Sequence record: MK422452.1
From: Klebsiella phage ST13-OXA48phi12.2
Reading direction: 5' to 3' (one strand)
Length of the DNA: 34,141 nt
Position numbers and translations under genes: made by a program. Below are positions 2,950-29,716 of the stretch, in pieces (position 1 is the first letter of the stretch; each line of letters begins with the position of its first letter). The notes under the pieces were generated by a model, which had not been told where the DNA came from, did not search any database, and was given only the letters and a program-made list of their open reading frames with translations.

Positions 2950-3030
2950 ATGGTCACCTTTTTGAATTAGGGAGTGCTTCGCTATGCGCCCCACCTGGAG
3001 GCGCATAAAACAACACACGGGATGGATGGG

Positions 3031-3843
3031 TTAGATGGAGCCTTCGTAGATAGGCAGTTCATCGCCGAGCTGGTTTTCCATATCGGCTACGATCTCCTGG
3101 AAGGCATGCTCAATGATTTTTTTCGGCTCGATCAGCTCATACCAGAGGACCAGCTGACCGTCGCGCAGGCGGTAGCGAATTCGCGCATCAATCTGGTACG
3201 GTGCGCCATTATGGAAAGGCGCGATTGCCAGGCTGATTTTTTCCGGGATTTTGGTATTGCCTGAGCCGGATTTATCATCGCTGTACTGGAACTGACAGGT
3301 TCCGTCCTGCAGGCGCTTAACCGACTTGAACTCAACTTTCCTTGTCTCCTGGAAGGCGAGTACCATTTCCAGGAGATCGGTACCGGACGGGCCTTTATAG
3401 TTATCGCTAATCGGCGCGATGTTCTGGATGTTGTTTTCCAGAAACTCGGCGAAGTCGATCTGATTCATCTTGTTACCATCAGACCCCACCCATGCTTTCC
3501 AGTCATCAGAGAAAGGACAGTCATAAACTGCTTTGTGCATTCCCCAGTGTGGGTTATCGGCGTCCTGGTGGAAGTCCAGCACCGCTACGATCCGGGTTTT
3601 GGTCTTGTCGGCGAAAACAACAGAACGCGCATCACGGAATCGCTGGATATATGCGATTAGCGAACCGGGGGAAATCAGGTTTGTATTCTGGCGAATACGA
3701 GACGGGGCAATCTGGAGGCTTTCGAGCGATTTGATATCGAAGCCATCCGGGACGACGACAGACGGGATGTCGGTATTAGTTTTCAGCGTTGCAGCAACCA
3801 GATCGCGGATGTCGTGCACGGCAGAGCCTTCAATTTGAGACAT
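3031..3843 (-). CDS. DUF2303 family phage protein (YfdQ-like)
   Basis: 270 aa. Its length and sequence character match the YfdQ/DUF2303 family found in CPS-53-like early regions. Recognised from memory; needs an HMM check. Confidence 0.7.
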   Translation of the reverse strand: MSQIEGSAVHDIRDLVAATLKTNTDIPSVVVPDGFDIKSLESLQIAPSRIRQNTNLISPGSLIAYIQRFRDARSVVFADKTKTRIVAVLDFHQDADNPHWGMHKAVYDCPFSDDWKAWVGSDGNKMNQIDFAEFLENNIQNIAPISDNYKGPSGTDLLEMVLAFQETRKVEFKSVKRLQDGTCQFQYSDDKSGSGNTKIPEKISLAIAPFHNGAPYQIDARIRYRLRDGQLVLWYELIEPKKIIEHAFQEIVADMENQLGDELPIYEGSI

Positions 3844-3886
3844 TGAATAATTCCTTTAGAGAGGTGTGTTGAAAAAGAGGGTGGGA

Positions 3887-4246
3887 TTACTGAGCCAGCT
3901 TAATAGGCGCAGCTTGCGGTGCTTGTTCGATAACTTTCAAATCCATCTGAACTTGCGCCGGGTCATCACGCAGCAGATCGCCATCAGCGGTAGAGAACAT
4001 GATGGTATCGGCGCGGTCCAGTTCCGGGATAGTGCGGGTTACTTTTGGCGTGACCTTCATGGTGTTTTCGTCACGGGTATTCAGCATTGAACAGTTAAGG
4101 GTAAGGGTCACAGCTCCCTTTTTACCCGTTTCACGTACAGCCTTGATCACTTCGGCCAGCGCTTCAGTCAGCTCGGCATCGAGAGTGCCTTTGTTGATGT
4201 ACGCCAGTTGCTGGCTAAACGGCGTGGTATTTTTGGTTTCGGACAT
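3887..4246 (-). CDS. hypothetical phage early protein (YfdP-like by position and size)
   Basis: 119 aa. There is a GGAG RBS 7 nt upstream of the ATG at 4246. It sits adjacent to the DUF2303 gene, as in CPS-53-type prophages. Confidence 0.55.
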   Translation of the reverse strand: MSETKNTTPFSQQLAYINKGTLDAELTEALAEVIKAVRETGKKGAVTLTLNCSMLNTRDENTMKVTPKVTRTIPELDRADTIMFSTADGDLLRDDPAQVQMDLKVIEQAPQAAPIKLAQ

Positions 4247-4261
4247 AATTATCTCCAGTTA

Positions 4262-4411
4262 TCAGCAGGGATCGCCTTTCTGGGTAAGAAGCCTGTACAA
4301 CCAGCTCTGCCGCCAGAAGCGAACGAATGATTTAGGGTTGCGAACAGCCTGCACACCGCGAGGGACGCGCATCAGATCGCCGTAAGGGAAATTAACGTTA
4401 CGGAAGGTCAT
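4262..4411 (-). CDS. 49-aa basic small protein (MTFRNVNFPYGDLMRVPRGVQAVRNPKSFVRFWRQSWLYRLLTQKGDPC)
   Basis: Not in the track because it is under 60 aa. GGTGA lies 5 nt upstream of the ATG at 4411. Its stop is followed by the RBS of the next gene. It would be the first gene of the early-left operon after the AT-rich island. Confidence 0.4.
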   Translation of the reverse strand: MTFRNVNFPYGDLMRVPRGVQAVRNPKSFVRFWRQSWLYRLLTQKGDPC

Positions 4412-4431
4412 ATTAATCACCGATTAATTAG

Positions 4432-4460
4432 GTATCCGGCAGGAGTTGAACCCGCGCTGG
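4432..4460 (-). other. tRNA/tmRNA-like 3' fragment (T-arm GCGGG-TTCAACT-CCTGC plus acceptor-like tail). It is not a complete tRNA and may be a relic attachment-site fragment
   Basis: The minus strand reads ...CAGCGCGGGTTCAACTCCTGCCGGATACC. This contains a canonical T-loop (GTTCAAcTC) with a 5-bp stem. GCGGGTTCAACTCC is identical to the tmRNA 3' region as I remember it. No cloverleaf can be completed upstream. Confidence 0.3.
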
Positions 4461-4685
4461 GTTGGGCAGCCCAGCCAACACCGGGAGCGGACATATTGAA
4501 TAAAAAGGGCGGTTACCCAACAGAACACTATCCTCTTCCTCCTGTTTGATTGGTGGAATACTGGATAACCGCCAAGTGAAAAGCACTCGCCTGTATGAAA
4601 AAACATTGTTATGCATACAGCTTTGTTGATCACTCTTTAACCAAGGTGATAGAATGGTGAATCCTCACCTTCAGAAGGGTTAAAT

Positions 4686-5600
4686 ATGCTTTACATGAAA
4701 GAAAATGGTGTATTGATCAAACTGGATAGCTGGGAGCAGGTTTATTCAAGACCTAATTTCATTAAAGACTTAGACCTAAAAGATAAAAAACTAAAAGCAC
4801 TAATTGGTTACTACAAAAATGAACCTCCACGTAAGTGTGGTATTAAAAGCTGCCACAGCAGTCATATGAAGGGAGGGATCGTCATTACAGAGGATGATTT
4901 CGAAGCCTCAATTGGTCACATCTGTGGTAGTAAAATATTTCAAGAAAAATTCGATGATTTAATTAAACAACTTGAAAAAGAAGTTGATTTCGAAATTTAT
5001 AAAGAGGCTGTGGCAAGTCGTAAGTCAAGGCTTTTTGAATATTGGAATAAAGCCGCCGCGCTCACATCTGGGAAAAACGGTATCCTCAAGCTTGCCGAAA
5101 AAATTTCTGACATTAAAAATGCCTTAGTTGCTGGTAGATATGCCGCAACCGAATTAGTCAGAATGGCATCTAACCAGCAGACAATAGTAACGAAAGAAGT
5201 CTGGGTTGAGAAAAAGAAAAAAGAACTCACTGAAGAAGAGGCAAGCAGTGGTGAGAAAAAATACAAAATAGAAACTGTAGTTTGTGGGCAGATAAAAAAT
5301 ATCGAAGTTCTACTAGCCGCGAACGATTTAAAAAGACTTTACAATGAAGAGATTGAGTCCGTGATTAAGGGGCTTGAAAAGCTGGATCTACAGACTGCCT
5401 CACCAAGTCAAATTAAAAACATTGGGCGTTCTGTATCCTCTTTGGATGTCAGACTAGAAACAGCAGCAAAGTTGAAGGAGCTTGCAATAGGCTTTTTGAC
5501 CTACGATAACCTGTATCCAATGCTTGAGAAAATGCATCCTATGGATACGATCAGTCGTAAGGATCTTGAGTTATATGAGAATTTTATAAAGTCCCTTTAA
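4686..5600 (+). CDS. AT-rich 304-aa protein of unknown function. It has an N-terminal Cys/His cluster (C-x4-C-H-x2-H ... H-x-C) and a long K/E-rich helical C-terminal region. Candidate lysogen-expressed exclusion/defence moron
   Basis: A long ORF with markedly lower GC than its neighbours. It is on the plus strand, antisense to the PL operon. AGAAGGG lies 7 nt upstream of the ATG. Its own promoter-like TTGATC-18-TAGAAT has a TG extension. Its own rho-independent terminator lies just downstream. Confidence 0.7.
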   Translation: MLYMKENGVLIKLDSWEQVYSRPNFIKDLDLKDKKLKALIGYYKNEPPRKCGIKSCHSSHMKGGIVITEDDFEASIGHICGSKIFQEKFDDLIKQLEKEVDFEIYKEAVASRKSRLFEYWNKAAALTSGKNGILKLAEKISDIKNALVAGRYAATELVRMASNQQTIVTKEVWVEKKKKELTEEEASSGEKKYKIETVVCGQIKNIEVLLAANDLKRLYNEEIESVIKGLEKLDLQTASPSQIKNIGRSVSSLDVRLETAAKLKELAIGFLTYDNLYPMLEKMHPMDTISRKDLELYENFIKSL

Positions 5601-5809
5601 TCCTTCACTGTGGGCAGCAATGCCCACTTTTTATATTCATGTGGATGAATCGGCCCCACATTTGTCATGAAACATACAAAACCGCTAAGCTCATCAAAAA
5701 AAGCAGTCGCAACGAGATAATCGTCATCATGGTTTATCAACAGAAATTGTTGACCTATGTCATCCTCAAAGGGAAGCTCTTCTGGAGTATTAAAAACAAT
5801 GTTGGTCAT
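5597..5809 (-). CDS. 70-aa strongly acidic AT-rich small protein. It is the first ORF downstream of PL/nutL but is not N-like
   Basis: ORF track protein MTNIVFNTPEELPFEDDIGQQF... is rich in D/E. There is an AAGGA RBS about 10 nt upstream. Its stop overlaps the stop of the 304-aa gene by 4 nt (TTAA). Confidence 0.5.
   Translation of the reverse strand: MTNIVFNTPEELPFEDDIGQQFLLINHDDDYLVATAFFDELSGFVCFMTNVGPIHPHEYKKWALLPTVKD
5610..5634 (+). terminator. rho-independent terminator of the 304-aa gene (GTGGGC-agcaat-GCCCAC + TTTTTAT)
   Basis: A perfect 6-bp GC-rich stem followed by a T-run, 10 nt after the stop codon. It lies inside the 3' end of the convergent 70-aa ORF. Confidence 0.6.
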
Positions 5810-6031
5810 ATTTATATAATCCTTATCGGTTTTTTATTCAGCCCAACCCCCTCACATCAAAGGGGCTGGAATAAATCATTTTGCGCTTGCACACTTCCCC
5901 TGCCAGTGTTCCCCGTTCACGCACGATTGAGATCGTGGCTAACCCTCACACCGACCGGATCGCACCCGGTGATACGTCGCATTAAAGCGCAGGGGTCTAA
6001 ACAGGTTTCATGTGCTGTTCCGACTTTGCTG

Positions 6032-6045
6032 ATTGTTAAAGAGCG
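6032..6045 (-). promoter_or_regulatory. nutL-type boxA (CGCTCTTTAACAAT on the minus strand), about 55 nt downstream of the predicted PL start. It is followed by a hairpin (AACAG-cacatgaaac-CTGTT) as a possible boxB
   Basis: A 14-nt match to the boxA consensus (rrn boxA TGCTCTTTAACAATTTATCA; lambda nut boxA CGCTCTTA...). It is read directly from the reverse complement of 6027-6047. Confidence 0.55.
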
Positions 6046-6105
6046 GCATTGCTTCAGCGGGCCCCTGTCGTAACGTTTACGGCTGGGTACCATTCCGCTG
6101 TTGAT

Positions 6106-6165
6106 GTAACCGAATGTACCTTTAGTTACCTTTGCCGTCAAGGTTGTTTTGTACCTTTAGTTACC
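6106..6165 (-). promoter_or_regulatory. OL operators and PL promoter. Direct repeats TGTACCTTTAGTTACC at 6115-6130 and 6150-6165, plus GTAACcgaatGTACC. Minus-strand -35 TTGACG (6136-6141) and -10 TACATT (6113-6118), 17-nt spacer
   Basis: The same 16-mer, one mismatch away, recurs between cI and cro at 6925-6940. The half-sites are GTACC and GTTAC (GTAAC). The promoter hexamers overlap the repeats. Confidence 0.5.
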
Positions 6166-6174
6166 AGAAGGCGC

Positions 6175-6200
6175 AAAAAAAAAGCCGGAGTGATTCCGGC
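6175..6200 (-). terminator. rho-independent terminator immediately after the cI stop (GCCGGAatcaCTCCGGC + T9 on the minus strand)
   Basis: A perfect 7-bp stem and nine Ts, 18 nt after the cI stop codon at 6218-6220. Confidence 0.75.
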
Positions 6201-6217
6201 TGTATGAAAATGGGGGC

Positions 6218-6877
6218 TTAGATGTTTTGTGTGATTTGGACGACTCTTCCGATTATCCGGCAGTTTCCGTCAATTTGAATTGGCTTGAATGCGGGGTTTA
6301 AAGGCATCAGGTACGCATATGGGCTATCCCATACCAGTTTTTTTACCGTTGCTTCTGTTGAACCATCCAACATAGCAACAACAACTTTCCCATACAGGTC
6401 GTCAATTTGTCCGTAATGAGGTTCGACAATAACTATCGACCCTTCTGGTATTGAAGGTATCCCGTTCGGGTTTGTCATGGATTCGCCACGAACTACAAGT
6501 CCGAAAGCTTCGTCTGAAACATTTGCAGTGGTTTGGGTCCAGGAAATCACATCAGTTAGTCTTGAGCTTGAATAAGTTTCAGTCCATGTGCCTGCTTGTA
6601 CAGCAGAAATAATAGGGATCGCAACAGGAGGTTTCAGGTATGGAATTACCTTCGTGTCATCAACTACGACATCACCTTCGCCGTAGAGAATCCACTCCGG
6701 AGTAACCTGAAGAGCAAGTGCAAGCTGGTGGAGGTTCTCTCCATCAGGTTTAGTTGTCCCGCTTTCCCATTTTGTAACCGACACCCTACTAACCCCCAGC
6801 TTTTTAGCGAGCGTTTGTTGTGTGATGTCAAGCTGAACCCTACGGGCGCGGATTCTATCTTTCATTTCATTTCTCAT
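6218..6877 (-). CDS. cI: cI-like prophage repressor (N-terminal XRE HTH plus C-terminal S24 LexA-like peptidase)
   Basis: The HTH segment is QQTLAKKLGVSRVSVTKWESG. The C-terminal part contains a GESM serine motif and a conserved Lys (KKL). It is divergent from cro. Like lambda cI, it appears leaderless or has a weak RBS. An alternative start is ATG 6865. Confidence 0.9.
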   Translation of the reverse strand: MRNEMKDRIRARRVQLDITQQTLAKKLGVSRVSVTKWESGTTKPDGENLHQLALALQVTPEWILYGEGDVVVDDTKVIPYLKPPVAIPIISAVQAGTWTETYSSSRLTDVISWTQTTANVSDEAFGLVVRGESMTNPNGIPSIPEGSIVIVEPHYGQIDDLYGKVVVAMLDGSTEATVKKLVWDSPYAYLMPLNPAFKPIQIDGNCRIIGRVVQITQNI

Positions 6878-6968
6878 GTAACCAATGTTACTTGAAGTGG
6901 TGGTAACTTTTATTTGCTATTTAATGTACCTTTTGTTACCTTCAGATCATTAAGTAACAGGAGTAACT
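6878..6968. promoter_or_regulatory. OR region between cI and cro. Palindrome GTAACcaatGTTAC (6878-6891), GGTAAC half-site (~6901-6907), TGTACCTTTTGTTACC (6925-6940) and GTAACaggaGTAAC (6954-6967). Presumably contains PR and PRM
   Basis: Repeated GTAAC/GTTAC/GTACC half-sites share their consensus with the OL repeats. The 91-bp divergent intergenic region is typical of lambdoid immunity regions. Confidence 0.55.
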
Positions 6969-7166
6969 ATGCGCAAACATGAAGTCATAGAGTATTTCGG
7001 CGGAGTATCTAAAACCGCCAGTACTTTAGGGATCTCTCATCCGGCTGTCTGCCGCTGGGGCGAGGTGATCCCTGAGAAACAGGCGTTTGTGATCGAGCGA
7101 ATCACTAACGGAAAGCTCAAGTACGACGCCAGCCTTTATCAAAAGTCTACAGATTCTGCGTCATAA
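6969..7166 (+). CDS. cro: Cro-like small HTH repressor
   Basis: 65 aa. AGGAG lies 7 nt upstream. The HTH is SKTASTLGISHPAVCRWGE. It is divergent from cI. Confidence 0.75.
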   Translation: MRKHEVIEYFGGVSKTASTLGISHPAVCRWGEVIPEKQAFVIERITNGKLKYDASLYQKSTDSAS

Positions 7167-7191
7167 CAGTAACTACCAAAGGAAATTCAAG

Positions 7192-7662
7192 ATGGTAGAG
7201 CAAAGCTTAAAAGAAGTGGTGAAGGCAATGTGCAAAGCATATCCAGGAGGCCGCGAAGCTATGGCTGGCGCTCTAGGGATGACGCTCACGCAGTTCAATA
7301 ACAACCTGTACGAGAAAAATGGATGCCGTTTCTTTGAAGTCGCTGAACTTGAAGCGATGGAGGACATTTCTGGTACAGCTGAGCTTGCCGATTACTTCGC
7401 GAAAAGACGCGGCGCATTGCTGGTGGATGTACCAAAGCTAGAAGACCTGGATCAGGTCGAACTATTCAATAAAGCCATGAAGACAGCCGCCATGCGTGGG
7501 CATGTTGATCTGGTCATCAACCTTGCGCTTGCCGATGGTGTGATTGATGAAGCTGAAGCTGATGAAATCAGGCACTACCACAGAAAACACCTCGCGGCAC
7601 GAGAAGAAGAAGTGAAATCCATCCTTGCAGTCTTTGGCCGACGAAAACCAAAGCGAGAGTAA
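7192..7662 (+). CDS. CII-like phage regulatory protein (CP76 family)
   Basis: 156 aa. AAGGAAA RBS. Position immediately after cro. Sequence character (TLTQFNNNLYE...ELEAMEDISG) resembles CP-933-type CII proteins as I recall them. Confidence 0.55.
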   Translation: MVEQSLKEVVKAMCKAYPGGREAMAGALGMTLTQFNNNLYEKNGCRFFEVAELEAMEDISGTAELADYFAKRRGALLVDVPKLEDLDQVELFNKAMKTAAMRGHVDLVINLALADGVIDEAEADEIRHYHRKHLAAREEEVKSILAVFGRRKPKRE

Positions 7663-8413: not shown

Positions 8414-9935
8414 CATCCAGCCCCGCGAAAAACAGGTAGTCGCGTTAAACATGCTGCGCAGCGCCTGGAAACAGAATAACTCCTTCATGCTCTACGCCCC
8501 TGTAGGGTTCGGCAAAACAGCAATAGCCGCGCTGATCACGGATGGCTTTGTAAGCCGTGAAATGCGCGTAATGTTTGTGGCTCCGTATACGGTTCTGCTG
8601 GACCAGACCGCAGCCCGATTCATGGAATACGGCCTTCCTGGCGAAGAAATCAGTTATGTCTGGCGTGATCACCCGTCATACAACCCCACAGCTCTGATCC
8701 AGATTGCCAGTGCGGATACGCTGATTCGCCGTGAGTTCCCGGACAATATCGACCTGTTGATCGTTGATGAAGCCCACCTGAAGCGCAAAAAACTGCTGGA
8801 GGTTATCGACAATCTCACTCGCAACACAGCAACGAAGGTAATCGGCCTTTCCGGTACGCCTTTCGCTAAGTTCCTGGGCAATTACTACCAGCGCCTGATT
8901 AAGCCAACGACCATGAAGGAACTGATCGCCATTGGTGCATTGAGCAAATATGAGTTCTATGCACCCTCGCATCCTGATCTGTCCAAAGTGGAAACGTCAT
9001 ACGTAGCAGGCTATGGCAGCGACTACAAAGAAAACCAGCTCAGCCAGGTAATGAGCGAAGCCAAGCTGGTAGGCGACATCGTGAAAAACTGGCTGGAGAA
9101 CGGCGAAGACCGCCCGACGATTTGTTTTTGCGTAGATGTCGCTCACGCCAATTTTGTCACGGTTGAATTTGCCAGCGCTGGCGTGACGGTTGAAGTTATG
9201 ACAGCCAGCACACCGCACGACGAACGGCAGCTCACGATCCGCCGCTTCGAACAGGGCATAACCAAAATCATCATTAACGTTGGTGTTCTGGTAGCCGGTT
9301 TTGATAGTGATGTTCGCTGCATTATCTTCGCCCGGCCAACAAAAAGCGAAATGCGCTGGATTCAGATTCTTGGGCGTGGCCTGCGTGCCGCTCCTGGTAA
9401 AGATCACTGCCTCATCTTCGACCACACAGGCACGGTTAATAAGCTGGGCTATCCAGACGATATTGAATACGACTATCTCCCTTCATCGTCTGACGGCATG
9501 GAAGAAGCACCGCAGAGAGCCGTAAAGACCGATGAAGCAGAAAAGCTGCCGAAAGAATGCAGCCAGTGCCACTTCGTCAAACCAGCCGGGATATACATCT
9601 GCCCGAAATGTGGTTTTAAACCGCTCGCCGGGGAAGACGTGGAAACAGATAAATCCCGTGGGCTGAAAAAGGTAAGCAAAGCGGAAGTCAAATATACCGC
9701 TGAGCAGAAGCAATCCTGGTGGTCTCAGATTCTTTTTTACCAGCGCACCCGCGCAGCGCAGGGACGCCCGGTCAGTGATGGCTGGTGTGCGCATACCTAC
9801 AAACAAAAATTCTCTGTATGGCCACGGGGGCTACATCACACCCCGCAGCAAATCACACCGGAAGTAACGAATTTCATCAAATCAAAACAGATCGCCTTTG
9901 CGAAGAGAAAAGAGAAAGAAGGAGATGCCGCATGA
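8406..9935 (+). CDS. SF2 DEAD/DEAH-box DNA helicase (phage replication). Start trimmed to ATG 8406 (MLNIQPREKQ...)
   Basis: Walker A motif is PVGFGKT. The DEAH box is LIVDEAH. Helicase C-terminal motifs are present. GGAGG lies 9 nt upstream of the ATG at 8406. Confidence 0.85.
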   Translation: MLNIQPREKQVVALNMLRSAWKQNNSFMLYAPVGFGKTAIAALITDGFVSREMRVMFVAPYTVLLDQTAARFMEYGLPGEEISYVWRDHPSYNPTALIQIASADTLIRREFPDNIDLLIVDEAHLKRKKLLEVIDNLTRNTATKVIGLSGTPFAKFLGNYYQRLIKPTTMKELIAIGALSKYEFYAPSHPDLSKVETSYVAGYGSDYKENQLSQVMSEAKLVGDIVKNWLENGEDRPTICFCVDVAHANFVTVEFASAGVTVEVMTASTPHDERQLTIRRFEQGITKIIINVGVLVAGFDSDVRCIIFARPTKSEMRWIQILGRGLRAAPGKDHCLIFDHTGTVNKLGYPDDIEYDYLPSSSDGMEEAPQRAVKTDEAEKLPKECSQCHFVKPAGIYICPKCGFKPLAGEDVETDKSRGLKKVSKAEVKYTAEQKQSWWSQILFYQRTRAAQGRPVSDGWCAHTYKQKFSVWPRGLHHTPQQITPEVTNFIKSKQIAFAKRKEKEGDAA

Positions 9936-10903
9936 ATACCAAACAAGCTGCGATTGGTCGCTGGGCGGAAATATTTAAACACTATGGTCTCCCTGGTATC
10001 ACCGGGAAAAACCATCTCAAGGGGGAATGTCCTCTGTGTGGCCGTACCGGAAAATTCCGCTGCGACAATAAAAACGGCACCGGCTCATACATCTGCGTGT
10101 GTGGATCTGGTGATGGCTGGGCCTTGTTGACCGCTAAGACTGGCAAAGAGTTTAAGGTTCTGGCCTCAGAAATAGACCGCCTGATCGGCAACGAGTACAC
10201 CTCAGACCGCACCAGAGTAAATCCGGTACGTACATCGCTGGCGCAACAGCGTGAAAAGGTCAGTCGTAAGTTTGCAAAGCTCACCCCACTGCGCGGAACC
10301 GGGGCAGATAGTTACCTGAAAGGGAGGGGTATCAATTCCCTGCCTTCTGAGAGCATCAGATTCTGCGATAAGCAGCCAGTAGACGGGAAAAACCTGCAGG
10401 CTATTTATGCATTGGCAACTGATGACCGTGGCGAACTGTGTTACCTGCACCGCACCTTGCTTGATGGTGATAAAAAGGCGCAAACAGGTGGCGCAGCCAA
10501 AAAGATGATGAAGCTGCAGGAAGATAGTTATCTGGAATTTGCTAAGTCTGTTGCTATCCGCATGTTCCCTACGTCCTCCACGCTGGGTATTGCAGAAGGT
10601 ATCGAAACGGCGCTGGCCTGCCATCAGATCACTAAGTGCAATACCTGGGCGACGATGAACACTGCATTCATGAAGAAGTTCCGTGTTCCTGCTGGCGTAA
10701 AGAACCTCATTATTTTTGCAGACTCAGATGCAAACGCTGCTGGGCATGCCGCCGCTTTTGAATGCGCTGCGGCGAATCTGCACGCGAAGAATGATCTGGA
10801 AAGTGTCTCCGTGCGCTGGCCTGCGCAGGGTGATTTTAATGATCTGCTGCTTAACGGTTCAGAAGTATTCGAGTGGGTATTTCACCGGGGGATGAAACAG
10901 TGA
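9932..10903 (+). CDS. phage DNA primase (zinc-ribbon CxxC...CxC plus toprim-like domain). Start ATG 9932 (MNTKQAAIGRW...)
   Basis: The N-terminal CPLCG...CVCG zinc-binding motif and IAEGIETALA...DSD are toprim-like. AGGAG lies 7 nt upstream. The ATG overlaps the helicase TGA. The longer track ORF is an upstream out-of-context extension. Confidence 0.7.
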   Translation: MNTKQAAIGRWAEIFKHYGLPGITGKNHLKGECPLCGRTGKFRCDNKNGTGSYICVCGSGDGWALLTAKTGKEFKVLASEIDRLIGNEYTSDRTRVNPVRTSLAQQREKVSRKFAKLTPLRGTGADSYLKGRGINSLPSESIRFCDKQPVDGKNLQAIYALATDDRGELCYLHRTLLDGDKKAQTGGAAKKMMKLQEDSYLEFAKSVAIRMFPTSSTLGIAEGIETALACHQITKCNTWATMNTAFMKKFRVPAGVKNLIIFADSDANAAGHAAAFECAAANLHAKNDLESVSVRWPAQGDFNDLLLNGSEVFEWVFHRGMKQ

Positions 10904-11517: not shown

Positions 11518-12158
11518 ATTACGATCTCATCTACTGTGATCCGCCGTGGGAATACGGCAATCGAATTAGCAACGGCGCAGCCTGTAATCATTACAGCACA
11601 ATGAGCATTGAAGACCTGAAACGGCTCCCTGTCTGGTCTCTGGCTGCTGATAACGCCGTACTGGCGATGTGGTATACGGGGACCCATAACCGCGAGGCTG
11701 TAGAACTGGCTGAATCATGGGGTTTCCGGGTCAGAACAATGAAAGGCTTTACCTGGGTAAAACTGAATCAGAACGCCGCTGACCGCTTCAACAAGGCACT
11801 AAACGCCGGAAAGCTGGTGGACTTCAATGATCTTCTTGAGATGCTGGACCGTGAGACGCGCATGAACGGCGGCAATCATACCCGGAGCAATACAGAAGAT
11901 GTCCTGATAGCGACCAGGGGAACCGGACTAACCCGCGCCAGCGCATCGGTAAAACAGGTTGTTCACACCTGCCTCGGTGAGCACAGCGCTAAACCGTGGG
12001 AAGTAAGGAACCGACTGGAGCAATTATACGGTGATGTGAAGCGGATCGAGCTATTCGCTCGGGAAGAGTGGAAAGGATGGGACCGCTGGGGAAATCAATG
12101 CAACAACAGTATCGAAATTATTACCGGACTGATTAAAGAGGTGAACCATGCAGCGTGA
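11514..12158 (+). CDS. MT-A70 family N6-adenine DNA methyltransferase
   Basis: A DPPW catalytic motif lies at the N-terminus (YCDPPWEY). The ATG overlaps the ninG stop (ATGA). Typical of nin-region methyltransferases. Confidence 0.85.
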   Translation: MNYDLIYCDPPWEYGNRISNGAACNHYSTMSIEDLKRLPVWSLAADNAVLAMWYTGTHNREAVELAESWGFRVRTMKGFTWVKLNQNAADRFNKALNAGKLVDFNDLLEMLDRETRMNGGNHTRSNTEDVLIATRGTGLTRASASVKQVVHTCLGEHSAKPWEVRNRLEQLYGDVKRIELFAREEWKGWDRWGNQCNNSIEIITGLIKEVNHAA

Positions 12159-12552
12159 TATTCAACTGGTACTCGAACGGTGGGGAACCTGGGCTATTAG
12201 TGAAGGCTCACAGGTTGACTGGTCACCAATTGCAGCGGGTTTTAAAGGCCTCCTGTTAAATACCTCAAAGTCTCGCGAGTCATGTTGTGACAATGATGGC
12301 CTTATTGTAGACGCTGCCGTAGGAATGCTTAAACGAGCTGGCCGGGATGATGAGTTAAATCTGGTGATGTTGCATTACATGCATAACGTTTCTAAATCGA
12401 CTATTGCCCGCTGGGAAAAATGTTCAGAGGGAAAAATACGTAACAGGTTAATGATAGCCGAAACGTTTATTGATGCCTGCATCATTATGAGTGGTGCCAG
12501 ATTAGAAATGGATGATTGGGCCCATAAAAAAGAAGTAGAGAAAGTTGCATAA
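12148..12552 (+). CDS. Q: late-gene antiterminator Q (phage-21/Gifsy type, Phage_antitermQ family)
   Basis: The N-terminus MQRDIQLVLERWGTWA closely resembles the MRDIQMVLERWGAWAA start of the Q21-type antiterminators I recall. It lies immediately upstream of the late promoter/terminator and lysis cassette. Confidence 0.75.
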   Translation: MQRDIQLVLERWGTWAISEGSQVDWSPIAAGFKGLLLNTSKSRESCCDNDGLIVDAAVGMLKRAGRDDELNLVMLHYMHNVSKSTIARWEKCSEGKIRNRLMIAETFIDACIIMSGARLEMDDWAHKKEVEKVA

Positions 12553-12628
12553 AAGTCTATTCGTTACGAATTTTATATATTAATGTGTTAAGAGTGGTCA
12601 CTTAGACACGAACTTAAATATTACAGAA

Positions 12629-12652
12629 CCTCGCCAATTGGCGGGGTTTTTT
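12629..12652 (+). terminator. tR'-like terminator in the late leader (CCTCGCC-aatt-GGCGGGG + TTTTTT)
   Basis: A 7-bp stem with one G-U pair followed by six Ts, about 75 nt after the Q stop. It is preceded by an AT-rich putative PR'/qut region (12553-12628). Confidence 0.6.
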
Positions 12653-12761
12653 CATTTCAGGCCCTGACTAAAAGTTGCAGATTAACCGTGAAATGCATGA
12701 GCCTGCGGCCTGAATTCTTTCCCCTCGTTCTGAGAGGATTCACAGCAATAGAGGGGGACCG

Positions 12762-14558: not shown

Positions 14559-14843
14559 CTATTGCAGGTAGCTTGCTGAAGCAGATTTCCTGCCAGGCGT
14601 TGAAAGATCGATAATGTCAGTGAAGATTGCCTTGTAGGCTTTATTTAACTTCTCAACTGTTTTCGGGGTGATATCACTCGTAGGCGGCGCGTCGATACCA
14701 TCCATTAATTCTATTTCAGCAAATTTTTTCAAAACCTGAAGGACACTCTCTTTTTGTTCTTCAGGCATCGTTTGCACAATAAAAGCAACAACGTTTCTCA
14801 GCGCCAGGAGTTGAGCATGAGTTACATAGTAATGATCGATCAT
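14559..14843 (-). CDS. 94-aa hypothetical protein at the bor-like position (opposite strand, just after the spanins). Start trimmed to ATG 14843 (MIDHYYVTHAQLL...)
   Basis: AGGAA RBS. AT-richer than flanking genes. It has no signal peptide and is not Bor-like. A divergent promoter region with repeated ATAGCGG motifs lies at 14844-14975. Confidence 0.45.
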   Translation of the reverse strand: MIDHYYVTHAQLLALRNVVAFIVQTMPEEQKESVLQVLKKFAEIELMDGIDAPPTSDITPKTVEKLNKAYKAIFTDIIDLSTPGRKSASASYLQ

Positions 14844-14975
14844 ATTTTCATTCCTGTTCTGTTGAGCTCGGCGATTTAACAGTATAGCGGAGAAATATTG
14901 CCCGCTACTCTGTGGCAACTTTCAATCGTGATGACTGGCAATAGCGGGACTTTTTATGCCCGGAACGGAGTATCT

Positions 14976-26137: not shown

Positions 26138-29100
26138 ATGGCAACCCTGCGTGAACTTATCATTAAGGTTTCAGCAAACTCTCAATCATTTCAGACTGAG
26201 ATCGCCCGCGCTTCACGCATGGGACAAGACTATTATAAAACCATGCAAAATGGTGGGCGTCAGGCAGCTGCGGCTGCGAAAGAAAGTCAAAAAGCTCTTT
26301 CCGAGTTAACCGATGGATTTGCTTCTGCTGGTCGAGCAGCTACGGCTGCGGCTGCAGCATTTGCTACAGGAAAACTGGTTCAGATTGCTGATCAATGGAA
26401 CTCAGTGAATGCGCGTCTTAAACAAGCCTCAGTGTCTACTAATGATTTTACTTTATCTCAGACCCGATTAATGGCGATTAGCCAGAGTACGGGCACTGCT
26501 TTTACTGATAACGCTAATTTATTTTCACGCGCGGCAGCATCAATGCGTGAATTTGGCTACAGCTCAGATGAAGTGCTCAAAATCACCGAAGCGGTATCAA
26601 CAGGACTTAAACTATCTGGTGCAAGCACAGAAGAAGCCGGTTCTGTTATTACCCAGTTCAGTCAGGCCCTTGCTCAAGGTGTTTTGCGTGGTGAAGAGTT
26701 TAACGCGGTTAACGAATCTGGTGATCGTGTCATCCGCGCCCTGGCTGCTGGTATGGGTGTTGCTCGAAAAGACCTTAAAGCAATGGCTGATCAGGGGCAA
26801 CTTACCATTGATAAAGTCGTACCAGCTTTGATCAGTCAATTAGGTGTATTACAGGGGGAGTTTTCCTCGTTGCCACCAACAGTTTCTGGATCAATGCAAA
26901 AAGTCACTAACTCTTTTATGGCATGGGTTGGTGGGGTGAACCAGGCAACTGGCGCGACAGATGCACTTTCTGGCGGTCTTGATGGGCTGGCAGGTACGCT
27001 GGATTCTCTTACATCTTCCGCTGTCAGCGGGGCCCTCAGTGACGTAGCAGATAATATGTCACTAATTACCACTGCTGCTGGTGGTTTGGTTGGGATCGGA
27101 TTAGCCCGGTATCTTGGTGGGATTGTTACCAGCGCAAGCAGTGCTACTGGCGCACTTATTTCAGCGGCAAAATCTGAGGTAGCCCTTGCAGTCGCTCAAG
27201 AAAAAGCAGCGCAATCTTCTGTTGCCGCTTCCCGCGCCGCTGTTTATCGTGCCCAGCAAGCTCTTCAGAGTGCTAAAAGTGCAGATGTTCAGGCGGCACA
27301 ACAGGAGAGGGTTGCGGCCGCAGAAGCCAAGGTTACTGCTGCGCAAGGTCGATTGACTACTGCCCTCGCCACCGGGACAGCTACAGAAAAAGTACGAGCA
27401 CGAACAGCTCTGGAGCGGGCTCAGGCCGGGCTTGTAGCTGCAAAAAATGCCGATGCACAGGCTATTGCAGAAAGAAAACTTGCTGCAGCGCAAGCGGCGC
27501 TTAGTCGTAATATTTCAGGTAGGGTTTCTGCTCAAAATAATCTTAACAGCGTTACCTCTGTCGGCACCCGGTTGATGAGCGGGGCTCTTGGGCTGGTTGG
27601 TGGTATACCCGGGTTAGTTATGCTGGGTGCGGGCGCATGGTACGCTATGTACCAAAGCCAGGAACAAGCAAGAAAATCAGCTCAGGAATATGCCAGCCAA
27701 ATAGATCAGATCAGAGAAAAAACCTCCTCAATGACCCTACCTGAGGTCGATAGTAATCGAAGATTAACGGTTGAGGCGATGCAGGAGCAAAAACGCCTAA
27801 TCGAAGACCAAGAACAAAGTGTAAAAAAACTTAACGGGCAAATAAATGATTTAAATGAAAGTAGAAGCAAACCAGGTATAACTCAAGAAAATGATTTAAA
27901 TATTACAAAAGCTATTGCAATTTTGACCGAGCAGGTTGTCGTAGAAGAAGACAAGCTTCGTCAGATGCGAGAAAAATCCAGTGATATATTAAAGGCACTT
28001 GAGGAGAATGAAAGAAGAAGAAATGATCTTATAAAAGAAAGAGCATGGCGGCAAAATGCAGAATACCAGAGTCTAATATTGATGACTGGTAAGTATTCCG
28101 AAGTTAACCGTTTACTTGGATTAGGAAACCAGCTTTTAATGGAACGGCAGGGCTTGGTTAATGTTCCAATGCGAATGCCTCAGGCTGATTTAACATCACA
28201 GCAAGCCAATGCTCTGGAAAAAAGCCGTCAGGACCTTGAACTATCAAAGCTTAAAGGAGAAGCAAGGGAGAGAGCACGGTTAGGTTATGCCGCTGACGAA
28301 TTGGGGCTTAAGGATGAACCTCAGTTTAAAACTAACCGCGATCTGTTTATTAATCAGGGGTTGGCGAAATGGCAAAACGATGAATCCAATAAACCCACCC
28401 GGAAAGCGCCAAAAAGCGAAGAGGTTAAAGCAGCTGAAAAGACAGAAGACGTTTACAAGCGCCTTATTAAACAGCAGCAGGAACAAATTGCCCTGGGAAG
28501 CCAGAATACCGAACTGGCTAAAATGAAATATCAGGTGACGCAGGGGGAGCTAGCCTCTCTTGAGCAAGCCAAAAAAGAAATAATCCTTCAAAATGCTGCA
28601 CTAATCGATCAGAAAAACATTGCTGAACAGTTGCAAACGTTCCGTGATGGGCTGGCTGACAGTAATGCCGCTGCGCGTGACCGGGGGAATATAGATTTTC
28701 TTGGCGCCGGGATGGGAGATAAAGCCCGCGACCGCATGAAGGAAATGGCGGATATTCGCACTGACTTCCGTAAGCAGCAGGATGAGCTTCAGCGTGACTT
28801 TAACAAGAAGCAAATTTCTGAAGACCAGTACAAACAGCAAACGGAAGCGCTGCAGGCGGCGCTTGCTGAACGGTTAGCGATTCAGGAGGACTACTACAAA
28901 AAGACCGATGAACAGCAGTCAGACTGGCGCACGGGGATCAGCGATTCCCTGATGAATTATGCCGATCAGTCTTCTGATCTGAGCTCAATGGCTGCCACTG
29001 CAACCAGCGAGATTCTGGATGCCACCACTAACTCTATCTCGAACAACCTGACAAACGTCCTGACAGGCGCTGCTTCGTTTAAAGATGGGATGTCGAATAT

Positions 29101-29716
29101 TTTTTCTTCCCTGGGCGAAACGGTGATTAAGACGCTGATCCAGATGGCAACACAGGCGTTGATCACTAAAGCGATTATGGCGTCATTTGGCGGCGGAGCG
29201 GGTGGGTTGTTCGGTAGTCTTTTTGGCGGTGCCAGCGGTGCGGCAAGTAGTGGTACCGCTATTCAAAGCGCGGGAGCTAATTTTTCATTTAACGCTCTCG
29301 GAGGCGTTTACGATTCTCCGTCACTTTCTGCCTACAGCAATGGTGTTTACAGCACTCCCCAATATTTTGCGTTTGCGAAAGGTGCGGGTGTATTCGGCGA
29401 GGCCGGGCCGGAAGCCATCATGCCGCTTACCCGTGGTGCTGATGGTTCGCTGGGGGTTCGTGCTGTAGGTCGTGAGTCCCCTGCGGTACAGAACGCAGCA
29501 AGTCAGATTCAGGCGCAGCCACGGATAGCTGTTAGCGTGGACGCACGAAGCACGTTCACCGGCAAACCGGATGACATAACGATGCAGGCCGTTGAGCGAA
29601 GAAATAATGCTCTTGAACAGCGGATTATTAACTCTCTAACCGCCGAGATAGATAACCCACAGAAGAAATTCGGTCGGGCTATTTATTCAAATCTCCAATC
29701 CAAAAAACCAAGATAG
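26138..29716 (+). CDS. tail tape measure protein
   Basis: 1192 aa. Ala/Gln-rich helical protein with a Gly-rich C-terminal segment, directly after G/T. Confidence 0.9.
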   Translation: MATLRELIIKVSANSQSFQTEIARASRMGQDYYKTMQNGGRQAAAAAKESQKALSELTDGFASAGRAATAAAAAFATGKLVQIADQWNSVNARLKQASVSTNDFTLSQTRLMAISQSTGTAFTDNANLFSRAAASMREFGYSSDEVLKITEAVSTGLKLSGASTEEAGSVITQFSQALAQGVLRGEEFNAVNESGDRVIRALAAGMGVARKDLKAMADQGQLTIDKVVPALISQLGVLQGEFSSLPPTVSGSMQKVTNSFMAWVGGVNQATGATDALSGGLDGLAGTLDSLTSSAVSGALSDVADNMSLITTAAGGLVGIGLARYLGGIVTSASSATGALISAAKSEVALAVAQEKAAQSSVAASRAAVYRAQQALQSAKSADVQAAQQERVAAAEAKVTAAQGRLTTALATGTATEKVRARTALERAQAGLVAAKNADAQAIAERKLAAAQAALSRNISGRVSAQNNLNSVTSVGTRLMSGALGLVGGIPGLVMLGAGAWYAMYQSQEQARKSAQEYASQIDQIREKTSSMTLPEVDSNRRLTVEAMQEQKRLIEDQEQSVKKLNGQINDLNESRSKPGITQENDLNITKAIAILTEQVVVEEDKLRQMREKSSDILKALEENERRRNDLIKERAWRQNAEYQSLILMTGKYSEVNRLLGLGNQLLMERQGLVNVPMRMPQADLTSQQANALEKSRQDLELSKLKGEARERARLGYAADELGLKDEPQFKTNRDLFINQGLAKWQNDESNKPTRKAPKSEEVKAAEKTEDVYKRLIKQQQEQIALGSQNTELAKMKYQVTQGELASLEQAKKEIILQNAALIDQKNIAEQLQTFRDGLADSNAAARDRGNIDFLGAGMGDKARDRMKEMADIRTDFRKQQDELQRDFNKKQISEDQYKQQTEALQAALAERLAIQEDYYKKTDEQQSDWRTGISDSLMNYADQSSDLSSMAATATSEILDATTNSISNNLTNVLTGAASFKDGMSNIFSSLGETVIKTLIQMATQALITKAIMASFGGGAGGLFGSLFGGASGAASSGTAIQSAGANFSFNALGGVYDSPSLSAYSNGVYSTPQYFAFAKGAGVFGEAGPEAIMPLTRGADGSLGVRAVGRESPAVQNAASQIQAQPRIAVSVDARSTFTGKPDDITMQAVERRNNALEQRIINSLTAEIDNPQKKFGRAIYSNLQSKKPR

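Follow-up and report, generated by a model that had tools for sequence, protein, structure and literature searches.

A convergent low-GC gene pair beside PL in a Klebsiella phage is a candidate lysogen-expressed defense protein with its own neutralizer

Next to the repressor gene of Klebsiella phage ST13-OXA48phi12.2 (MK422452.1; the 34,141 nucleotides analyzed here are referred to as the window), with the CI-controlled PL promoter on one side and the early-left operon on the other, lies a 1,260-bp low-GC insert that carries two convergent genes, one for a 304-aa protein and one for a 70-aa acidic protein. The reading that we favor from the sequence, and to which we give an even chance of being right, is that the larger protein is a defense or exclusion factor expressed in the lysogen and that the smaller one is its cognate neutralizer, made on induction. 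The insert and its coding parts are as follows.

4576..5835, no strand: the cassette, recognized by low GC and by comparison with an island-less E. coli 118UI prophage (L097), in the variable slot of the PL transcription unit
4686..5600, plus strand: gene for the 304-aa protein (ORF list; 34.7 kDa, pI 8.4, soluble; PHROG 7003; invariant CCHC site)
4686..4985, plus strand: its N-terminal domain, residues 1-100, a beta-sheet plus a helix bearing C51, C56, H60 and C80, a presumed zinc site
5597..5809, minus strand: gene for the 70-aa protein (ORF list; pI 4.3), convergent partner of the 304-aa gene and the first ORF after PL

Both ORFs lie where the original prediction had placed them, and their stop codons overlap as TTAA (5597-5600) as it had described. 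A GC scan of the window gave 0.36-0.39 over 4501-5850 against 0.48-0.53 on both flanks, bearing out the proposed AT-rich island, and the pair does occupy the variable region between cI/PL and the early-left genes. The limits first suggested, 4560-5830, were close; comparison with L097 sets them at 4576 and 5835, as that prophage conserves window positions 3001-4575 and 5836-6107 (80-86%) and carries an unrelated 482 bp in place of the cassette. Both genes are missing together from island-less relatives. A megablast search with the island as query returned no match among 50,697 phage records, and in E. coli genomes only the non-coding flanks matched. Other low-GC patches of the window lie at 25.8 kb and 27.6 kb, in or beside a 1,192-aa ORF (26138-29716).

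The 304-aa protein had been said to match no recognized family, and it indeed belongs to no named one, but it is not an orphan. Residues 1-304 align with profile positions 1-308 of 309 of PHROG 7003 (E 1.6e-97), which is its sole named match and has no annotated function, and the family, clustered at 50% identity, comprises at least 514 representative clusters of proteins that are all about 300 aa long and come from proteobacterial prophages, plasmids and restriction-modification (R-M) islands. A search of defense databases had been suggested; PADLOC-DB (version 2023, so that systems described later lie outside the screen) gave no match for the protein or 81 relatives, nor did Pfam or PDB sequences, and NCBIfam gave none for the protein and three relatives, the only four compared with it. 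A literature search by the accession of an E. coli homolog and by the PHROG number turned up no paper. The gene is under strong purifying selection (pN/pS 0.06-0.15), and the maximum Kyte-Doolittle score of its product is 0.91 in a 19-residue window, which therefore predicts no membrane-spanning segment.

The N-terminal Cys/His cluster that had been pointed out is present (K50-C51-G-I-K-S-C56-H57-S-S-H60 and G77-H78-I-C80-G81), but His78 of its GHICGS part is not conserved across the family, and the residues that are invariant family-wide form a Cys-Cys-His-Cys set, C51, C56, H60 and C80. We also ran the proposed fold search: the full structure model had no match in BFVD, and for the N-terminal domain the PDB offered only a weak, chromo-like match. 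For the beta-beta-alpha part of this domain, a His-Me/HNH nuclease identity was considered and then dropped, as none of the HNH models matches and position 78 is not a conserved His. Profile and fold searches detected no effector or enzyme domain or motif. Because no enzyme fold or motif is detectable, the protein would most likely act by binding phage nucleic acid or protein and not by catalysis.

Three signals accompany the larger gene.

4626..4655, plus strand: predicted sigma-70-type promoter, with -35 TTGATC (4626-4631), an 18-nt spacer and an extended -10 TGaTAGAAT (4647-4655), from a consensus scan
4675..4679, plus strand: ribosome-binding site AAGGG, 6 nt upstream of the ATG, read from the sequence
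5610..5635, plus strand: hairpin GTGGGCAGCAATGCCCAC plus TTTTTATA, from a scan, resembling an intrinsic terminator at the end of the 304-aa transcript

The gene points against PL and, in line with the original prediction, has its own promoter, of predicted activity, and its own ribosome-binding site. By itself the promoter match is not above chance, with five promoter-like sites in 3800-7300 against 5.4 expected; the layout TTGnnn-17/18-TGnTAnnAT plus AAGGG recurs at the same position in the upstream alignment of 13 relatives whose proteins are 35-95% identical, and the (A)AAGGG motif is kept in this alignment. The "clean intrinsic terminator" fared less well: the hairpin and its T-run are there, but the T-run is limited to the window and a close Citrobacter relative (L010) and is absent from ten more distant relatives, a set that left out L017. 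Read on the opposite strand, the hairpin also belongs to the 3' coding region of the 70-aa gene, where it overlies the conserved W-A-L-L-P codons.

On the other side of the cassette lie the elements that would govern the smaller gene.

6113..6141, minus strand: PL, with -35 TTGACG (6141-6136), a 17-nt spacer and -10 TACATT (6118-6113), from a scan
6116..6165, no strand: OL operators GGTAACTAAAGGTAC, two exact copies (6116-6130 and 6151-6165) flanking PL
6218-6877: cI, an S24-type ORF (ORF list and Pfam labels of relatives)
6969-7166: cro (ORF list and Pfam labels of relatives)
5836..6107, minus strand: untranslated PL leader of about 270 nt, by sequence identity with L007, L010 and L097
5820..5824, minus strand: ribosome-binding site AAGGA of the 70-aa gene, 10 nt upstream of the ATG, read from the minus strand

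A third operator copy, with one mismatch, lies between cI and cro at 6926-6940. The operator consensus is GGTAAC(T/A)AAAGGTAC, and the three matches in the window compare with 0.45 expected; none of 100 shuffles reached three. Because copies of this operator stand on both sides of the leftward promoter and another lies between cI and cro, we consider the 70-aa gene to be CI-repressed and, as the original prediction had it, the first ORF of PL. The leader is 86-97% identical in the three relatives, where it is unannotated, and finishes, at the cassette's right border, with the hairpin CAGCCC...GGGCTG (5836-5878); the z-score of its fold is only -1.4.

The 70-aa ORF is a real gene, since it has homologs in 24 loci with a pN/pS of 0.30-0.51 and 11 invariant columns. 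The protein is as acidic as had been noticed (pI 4.1-5.0 in all copies), but the suggestion that it is a DNA mimic has nothing behind it except this acidity. It had no match in Pfam, PADLOC, NCBIfam or PDB, and in PHROGs one of six copies matched the unnamed phrog_17248 and the other copies none. A role as an N-like antiterminator was thought unlikely because the partner is acidic and is absent from island-less relatives that have the same leader and left operon.

The two genes are strictly paired. The partner is present in 24 of 24 cI-side loci and in none of the 65 other phage loci. It was never found apart from the large gene: when it served as the query of a second scan, every locus retrieved was one of the known pair loci. 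In the loci examined it always lies tail-to-tail with the large gene, with 3' ends that overlap by up to 45 nt or leave a gap of 2-5 nt, and the overlap persists as identity of the large protein falls from 95% to about 18-35%. The pair is also kept on a different phage backbone (L015) and in L095, where the large gene follows cI in the same orientation; there the partner is not in the PL direction, and being the first gene of PL is therefore not universal for the pair. Divergence of the two genes is correlated (r 0.80), their products have complementary charges (pI 8.4 versus 4.3), and the partner evolves faster than the large gene (pN/pS 0.30-0.51 versus 0.06-0.15).

Because the partner is tied perfectly to the cI-side position, it could be a position-linked early gene instead of a cognate inhibitor, and the 55 family members on the Q side that do without it count against our main reading. 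In the corresponding alternative, which we regard as unlikely though not negligible, the 304-aa protein is still a defense or exclusion factor of the lysogen, and the 70-aa protein is an unrelated immediate-early product, for example a host-directed anti-defense or take-over factor that shares the cassette and does not act on its neighbor. Its place as first ORF after PL, an acidity like that of some early anti-restriction proteins, its absence from every Q-side member and fast evolution of the kind shown by counter-defense genes would all agree with this. Such a gene would nonetheless not be expected to keep to the large gene as closely as this one does: its homolog searches yielded four clusters only, island-less relatives lack both genes, and the tail-to-tail overlap survives deep divergence, a change of backbone and the inversion in L095.

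We checked the conservation of the neighborhood in other prophages, as had been proposed, and found the gene almost always antisense in a moron slot across 89 phage loci. The large gene is lower in GC than its flanks in every one of them and is typically a lone plus-strand gene amid minus-strand genes, antisense to the adjacent lytic operon in 79. In 55 loci it lies immediately after a Q antiterminator, before the holin/lysozyme genes and antisense to the late operon, and in 24 it is on the cI side. Copies adjoin stx genes and occur in Klebsiella, Citrobacter, Serratia and Pseudomonas prophages, and Pseudomonas Hollowayvirus phages carry the gene in the same antisense slot. A scan of species-representative genomes found one locus only.

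Distant relatives are found in apparently defense-rich neighborhoods. One is in a P2-like hotspot with an OLD-family nuclease, some adjoin AbiJ and AAA_13 and others Abi_alpha and DUF4365, and metagenomic neighbors include CBASS, type I and III R-M, AbiEii, DRT and SoFic. A single member is embedded in a type I R-M operon with hsdS and hsdR as its neighbors, the position of PrrC-type (anticodon nuclease) add-on defenses; the likeness ends there, as the family has no ATPase or nuclease motif and no similarity to the PADLOC PrrC or RloC models. Taken from sequence context, the antisense moron slot together with this defense-rich placement would fit a protective role expressed in the lysogen.

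Neighborhood alone does not separate defense from anti-defense, because genes of both kinds share islands, and the plasmid anti-restriction and housekeeping neighbors of some members count against our main reading. On a Vibrio vulnificus plasmid, Hok/Gef, a protein annotated as antirestriction and an ArdC-like metallopeptidase are all encoded no more than 3 kb from the homolog, and relaxase genes adjoin homologs in Burkholderia plasmids and in L104. These members keep alive the idea, which we rate as improbable, that the family provides mobile elements with a constitutive anti-defense or establishment function that acts on DNA entry. Phage anti-defense genes are normally early lytic and in sense orientation, unlike a family that has its own promoter and runs antisense to the lytic operon in most phage loci, and the member embedded in the R-M operon holds the position of a defense add-on.

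Little probability likewise attaches to a role for the prophage or host outside phage defense, either as a lysogenic-conversion factor or as a device that tightens lysogeny, the latter because a promoter that fires against PL or PR' would suppress leaky lytic transcription. In agreement with this, the gene invariably follows right after an antiterminated lytic promoter and faces it, the searches detected no effector domain, and some homologs sit amid housekeeping genes. That a 300-aa protein is under strong purifying selection and keeps its metal site invariant argues, however, that the protein matters and not its transcription alone, and members in the R-M operon and Abi islands outside phages have no lytic promoter to oppose.

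A toxin-antitoxin-like addiction module that stabilizes the prophage, in which the large protein would be the toxin and the small acidic one the antitoxin, appears very improbable. The proteins do look the part, as a large, mildly basic and a small, acidic product that are co-inherited and co-diverge, and a distant member adjoins a TacA/TacT module and that of L104 a Gp49/HI1420 pair. Type II modules, however, form one co-transcribed, autoregulated operon, and here the genes are tail-to-tail under separate promoters. In addition, the small gene of the window is under CI-repressed PL and would thus be silent in the lysogen, where the "toxin" is expressed, and most family members have no partner at all.

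Known prophage systems offer closer parallels to the lysogen-expressed defense protein with a cognate neutralizer. The variable region that separates cI from the early-left genes also houses RexAB in lambda and SieB/Esc in P22, which are expressed by the prophage and exclude other phages; Esc protects P22 from its own SieB. In lambda, rexAB is co-transcribed with cI, and RexB and SieB are membrane proteins; the 304-aa protein differs in having no hydrophobic segment and in being antisense to cI in the window, and the convergent genes do not reproduce the Rex arrangement of two genes co-transcribed with cI, one of them for a polytopic membrane protein.

By analogy, the best reading may work like Tai/Ati of phi80 or BstA/aba, a parallel in which our confidence is evenly balanced and which involves homology to neither. 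TaiEcA is an experimentally shown defense gene, antisense in the Q operon of phi80, and the adjacent Ati is a small (76 aa) operon-strand protein of the lytic cycle that binds and neutralizes its cognate Tai (PMC11364771). The target of Tai is tail assembly, and the name Tai/Ati stands for tail assembly inhibition in phi80 and its relatives (He et al. 2024, PMC11364771). As in that system, a defense-type gene lies antisense inside an antiterminated phage operon with the putative counter-gene adjacent on the operon strand, and in the window PL is followed by the 70-aa gene and then by the 304-aa gene in antisense, the order of a non-contiguous operon. A minority of Tai homologs have Ati, just as the partner here is confined to the cI-side clade. 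The layouts differ: tai and ati form a head-to-head pair within the late operon, close to cos, and the present genes are tail-to-tail in the PL unit. Homology was rejected, with hhalign probabilities of 0.3% for TaiEcA (phi80 orf63) and 0.1% for AtiEcA (orf64), and tblastn of the 304-aa protein against the 50,697 phage records did not return phi80.

BstA of Salmonella phage BTP1 (Owen et al. 2021, PMC8585504) is expressed in the lysogen, acts by abortive infection and is accompanied by a cognate element for self-immunity that lets the phage go on replicating. Like the 304-aa protein, it is a single prophage protein, some 300 aa long, whose gene occupies the variable slot between cI and N. BstA, however, has a KilA-N-like domain, and the window protein and 81 relatives matched neither KilA-N in Pfam nor BstA in PADLOC. 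The bstA gene lies downstream of cI on the same strand, an orientation seen only in the distant members of L095 and L096, whereas the present gene is convergent with cI and PL. Immunity in BTP1 comes from aba, a short stretch of DNA at the 5' end of bstA, in contrast to the protein-coding candidate here.

Overall, the original prediction holds for the cassette slot, the separate promoter, the PL-first partner and the lack of a named family, and gives way on the terminator, orphan status, His78 and DNA mimicry. We propose that in a CI lysogen the soluble 304-aa protein, with its presumed Cys-Cys-His-Cys zinc site, would be made from its own extended -10 promoter and would act as a defense or exclusion factor against other phages. 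Once CI is inactivated, PL would fire with the 70-aa acidic protein as its first product, which would contact and neutralize the 304-aa protein and so spare the phage self-inhibition, and PL transcription running antisense through the larger gene would damp its expression. A bolder version, which we advance only tentatively, is that the 304-aa protein is a founding, undescribed member of a widespread single-protein anti-phage family with a new zinc-stabilized binding module, and that one clade gained a convergent, 3'-overlapping, fast-evolving acidic gene as an off-switch for self-immunity at both the protein and the antisense level.

If the proposal is correct, a large unannotated family that the Pfam, NCBIfam and 2023 PADLOC models miss would join the phage-defense catalog, and its copies would shape which phages, therapeutic ones included, infect lysogens. 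The pair would be a second independent case of the Tai/Ati principle, in which a defense gene antisense to a lytic operon is matched by a neutralizer on the lytic strand, and this layout could serve as a search rule for new pairs of defense and self-immunity genes. A gene that stands right behind an antiterminated promoter and faces it would also be a clean case of expression control by convergent transcription.

The left border of the cassette is marked by a further conserved element.

4400..4575, minus strand: non-coding element with a long terminator-like hairpin, GGCGGTTATCCAG...TAACCGCC plus a T-run, followed by a tRNA-like fold

ARAGORN found nothing in this element, and Rfam returned nothing at the gathering threshold over the whole window; compared with the Rfam tRNA-Sec model, the element scored 20 bits (E 0.8). 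Its fold has four compensatory pairs, all from one sequence. At the nucleotide level the element is 87-99% identical in more than 20 loci, even where the 304-aa homolog is only 36% identical.

The window, a lambdoid-type prophage, carries two convergent genes beside cI together with the elements below (genes from the ORF listing, with the Pfam labels of syntenic relatives for CI and Cro; promoter-like sites from a promoter scan; hairpin from a scan).

4400-4575, minus strand: left-border non-coding element, 87-99% identity in more than 20 loci
4626-4655, plus strand: sigma-70-like site, TTGATC-18 nt-TAGAAT, with TG before the -10
4686-5600, plus strand: 304-aa ORF (large gene)
5597-5809, minus strand: 70-aa ORF (small partner)
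5610-5635, plus strand: GC-rich hairpin and T-run, 3' of the large gene's stop
5836-6107, minus strand: untranslated PL leader of ~270 nt, 86-97% identity across Klebsiella, Citrobacter and E. coli prophages
6141-6113, minus strand: PL, TTGACG-17-TACATT
6218-6877, minus strand: S24-type CI repressor
6969-7166, plus strand: Cro

Both ORFs lie where the original prediction had placed them, their stop codons overlapping in TTAA at 5597-5600, and the lower GC it described is borne out (0.36-0.39 across ~4500-5850 versus 0.48-0.53 in both flanks). The sigma-70-like site precedes an AAGGG ribosome-binding site and ATG by 30 nt, and TTGnnn-17/18-TGnTAnnAT with AAGGG is kept upstream in 13 relatives (35-95% protein identity), with the bases around it varying. 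The proposed expression signals hold to this extent; the clean terminator does not. The hairpin is antisense to the small gene's W-A-L-L-P codons, and its T-run is present in the window and in L010, a close Citrobacter relative, and absent from ten more distant relatives examined. Because the T-run is confined to these two among those examined, the terminator is not a family feature.

Two exact copies of GGTAACTAAAGGTAC bracket the leftward promoter and a third, differing at one position, is located between cI and cro; these three matches compare with 0.45 expected, and none of 100 shuffles gave three. Since the operator copies bracket the promoter and recur between cI and cro, we take it to be the CI-controlled PL. 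Its transcript would run through the ~270-nt leader and the 70-aa gene, then antisense through the 304-aa gene, and on into the early-left genes (YfdP, DUF2303/YfdQ and ParB-like by their labels in relatives), in agreement with the earlier reading of the small gene as the first of PL and of the large gene as opposing it. Cro is followed by a CII-like gene, then helicase, primase, NinG, MT-A70 methylase, Q (12148-12552) and lysis genes. Comparison with L097, an E. coli 118UI prophage lacking the pair, sets the cassette borders at 4576-5835: its flanks align to the window at 80-86% identity, and in place of the cassette it holds an unrelated, unannotated 482 bp (3019-3500) with ORFs of 55 and 46 aa on the PL strand and 43 aa opposite. 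This different filling makes the slot an exchange point for different cargos. Klebsiella phage ST101-KPC2phi6.3 has its cI-cro immunity region in common with the window and likewise lacks both genes. Given these two absences, we regard the pair as cargo in a variable slot, in the region corresponding to that of lambda rexAB and BTP1 bstA (PMC8585504), as its assignment to the rex/sieB/N position had implied. In four Klebsiella loci (L004-L006 and L008, ~9360-9950), an extra 194-195-aa gene of unknown function, absent from the window, lies on the PL strand between the small partner and cI.

We surveyed the placement of the large gene in 89 phage and prophage loci, with neighbours clustered and Pfam-labelled. 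Its GC is below that of the flanks in every locus, and it is mostly a lone plus-strand gene among minus-strand genes. The antisense placement recurs: in 55 loci the gene comes directly after Q, ahead of the holin and lysozyme genes and on the strand opposite to the late operon, and in 24 it lies on the cI side in the window's arrangement. Pseudomonas Hollowayvirus temperate phages also carry a family gene antisense between the repressor and the early-left genes. These comparisons point to a recurrent layout in which a gene with its own predicted promoter lies just behind an antiterminated lytic promoter and points against it, as would be expected if the gene were active in the lysogen and overrun in lytic growth. 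Counted among the 55 is the Stx2f phage phi467 (L003, 5001-5875), whose family member is split into two ORFs, likely by a frameshift, next to stx2f and antisense between Q and stxA. In the window itself the gap between Q and the holin gene (12553-12761), the family's slot in those 55 other phages, measures only 210 nt and is free of cargo; this phage has its copy at the PL slot instead.

The large protein had been said to belong to no known family. It indeed found no match in Pfam, PADLOC (models from 2023) or NCBIfam; however, it is not an orphan, matching PHROG 7003 (function unannotated) end to end (E 1.6e-97). When 5.8 billion proteins were searched by word index, only 14 close clusters came back, all from Enterobacterales; an exhaustive profile search returned 514 representative clusters at E <=0.001 (265 at <=1e-10), nearly all of ~300 aa and matched over most of their length. 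Among 81 members, down to 19% identity, Y43, C51, C56, H60, G63, G77, C80, G81 and N275 are invariant. The predicted Cys/His cluster is present (C51-x4-C56-H57-x2-H60, then H78-x-C80), but His57 and His78 are not conserved; the invariance of C51, C56, H60 and C80 indicates a putative Cys-Cys-His-Cys metal site. AlphaFold2 modelled the protein confidently (pLDDT 87.8) and its N-domain very confidently (94.4), and it is predicted to be soluble and mildly basic (pI 8.4). A fold search of the model against a viral structure library and a comparison of the family profile with PDB sequences gave no match. The defence search proposed with the original prediction turned up nothing: the protein and its 81 relatives had no convincing match in PADLOC, nor the relatives in Pfam.

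Every one of the 24 cI-side loci has a homologue of the partner tail-to-tail with the large gene, and the 65 others have none; the two genes have 3' ends overlapping by <=45 nt or separated by 2-5 nt in the loci examined. The pairing is kept at only 35-36% identity of the large protein to that of the window, and also on another replication backbone (L015; PolA, DUF2800). In the viral contigs L095 and L096 (5155-7190), a full-length large gene (hhalign probability 99.9% to the family) follows a cI-like repressor on the same strand after a 46-nt gap, a rexA/bstA-type position; the partner is still convergent, with a 45-nt overlap and a promoter-like site of its own, and both genes are followed by a terminator. 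This arrangement argues that convergent overlap, and not orientation to PL, is the constant feature. Partners are all acidic, as predicted (pI 4.1-5.0), and have F6, P13, L23, Y31, F44, H55, Y59 and a C-terminal W-A-x-L-P in common. Divergences of the two genes are correlated pairwise (r 0.80) and the partner evolves faster: large proteins at 85% identity accompany partners at 53%, and at equal synonymous distance pN/pS is 0.30-0.51 for the partner versus 0.06-0.15 for the large gene, which is under strong purifying selection. On these comparative grounds the 70-aa ORF is a real gene tied to the large gene; that it is an independent early gene merely riding in the cassette we consider unlikely.

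Seven distant members of the family could be placed.

Member 1: between hsdS and hsdR of a type I restriction-modification operon
Member 2: in a P2-like element with OLD-family nuclease, DUF2971 and NYN genes
Member 3: adjoining AbiJ and AAA_13 genes
Member 4: after an integrase, adjoining Abi_alpha and DUF4365
Member 5: in a conjugative element, beside a Gp49/HI1420 pair
Member 6: beside TacA/TacT
Member 7: among housekeeping genes

The 142 nearest neighbours in 38 metagenomic loci are mixed, comprising housekeeping genes, integrases, transposases and defence genes, the last including a CBASS cyclase and phospholipase, type I and III restriction enzymes, AbiEii, SoFic and defence reverse transcriptases; this apparent enrichment across 38 loci is qualitative only. 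We give little credence to the cassette being a non-defence conversion or lysogeny-tightening device. Plasmids of Burkholderia, Pseudomonas and Vibrio also carry members, and the Vibrio copy has Hok, an antirestriction gene and an ArdC-like gene nearby. That copy leaves room for an anti-defence reading; an anti-defence or establishment function of the family seems to us quite improbable.

We favour a reading, built on the observed anatomy, conservation and contexts, to which we assign about even chances: the 304-aa protein would be made in the lysogen and act as a defence or exclusion factor, by binding rather than catalysis, and the 70-aa protein, made from PL at induction, would be its cognate off-switch, reinforced by PL transcription antisense through the large gene. 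Expression timing, phenotype, zinc binding and protein-protein contact are steps that we infer. A toxin-antitoxin-like addiction pair is a poor match for convergent, oppositely regulated genes and is highly improbable. The strongest outside support for the favoured reading is by analogy with phi80, whose defence gene TaiEcA lies antisense inside the Q operon and is neutralised by AtiEcA, a 76-aa product of the operon strand; Ati is found with few Tai homologues only (PMC11364771). The window pair resembles this antisense defence gene and small operon-strand neutraliser, with roles proposed from sequence. BstA/aba follows the same self-immunity logic, but its immunity element is DNA (PMC8585504). 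Profile comparison and PADLOC gave no homology of the pair to Tai/Ati or BstA, so the claim is that it may work like these systems, not that it is a member of them. Prophages that carry defence cargo and self-immunity in a non-contiguous operon are already known; as far as literature searches reach, neither the protein families nor the tail-to-tail overlap nor the placement rule has been described. We regard the pair as a well-defined candidate that lends itself to experiment, and not as a demonstrated system.

Conserved non-coding elements flank the cassette. The left-border element is better conserved than the adjoining cargo and, read in the PL direction, holds a 13-bp stem, GGCGGTTATCCAG...TAACCGCC, with an invariant T-run after it, the two together looking like a terminator; in most relatives the 40-nt loop contains AGGAGG and a two-codon mini-ORF (ATG TTC TGA). 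A tRNA-like fold comes next, with an acceptor-like stem, an anticodon-like arm and a T-arm GCGGG-UUCAACU-CCUGC. It scored 20 bits (E 0.8) against the Rfam tRNA-Sec model, ARAGORN found no tRNA in the element, and a single sequence supplies all four of its compensatory pairs. The PL leader, in which nothing is annotated in the Klebsiella, Citrobacter and E. coli prophages compared, ends in a conserved hairpin (5836-5878) and has a fold z-score of only -1.4. None of the ORFs listed for the region stands out as an N-like antiterminator gene, so a cis-acting, put-like RNA is conceivable.

Further candidate cargo lies elsewhere in these phages. A 119-aa ORF of the window (14559-14918, minus strand; GC 0.44), after the lysis genes and opposite to the late genes, had no Pfam match and may be another antisense cargo gene. 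Among relatives, L007 (3482-4558) and L001 (2579-3655) carry a DndB/DGQHR-domain gene within the early-left operon and L009 a TIR-domain gene after Q, so these prophages hold several defence-type cargos.
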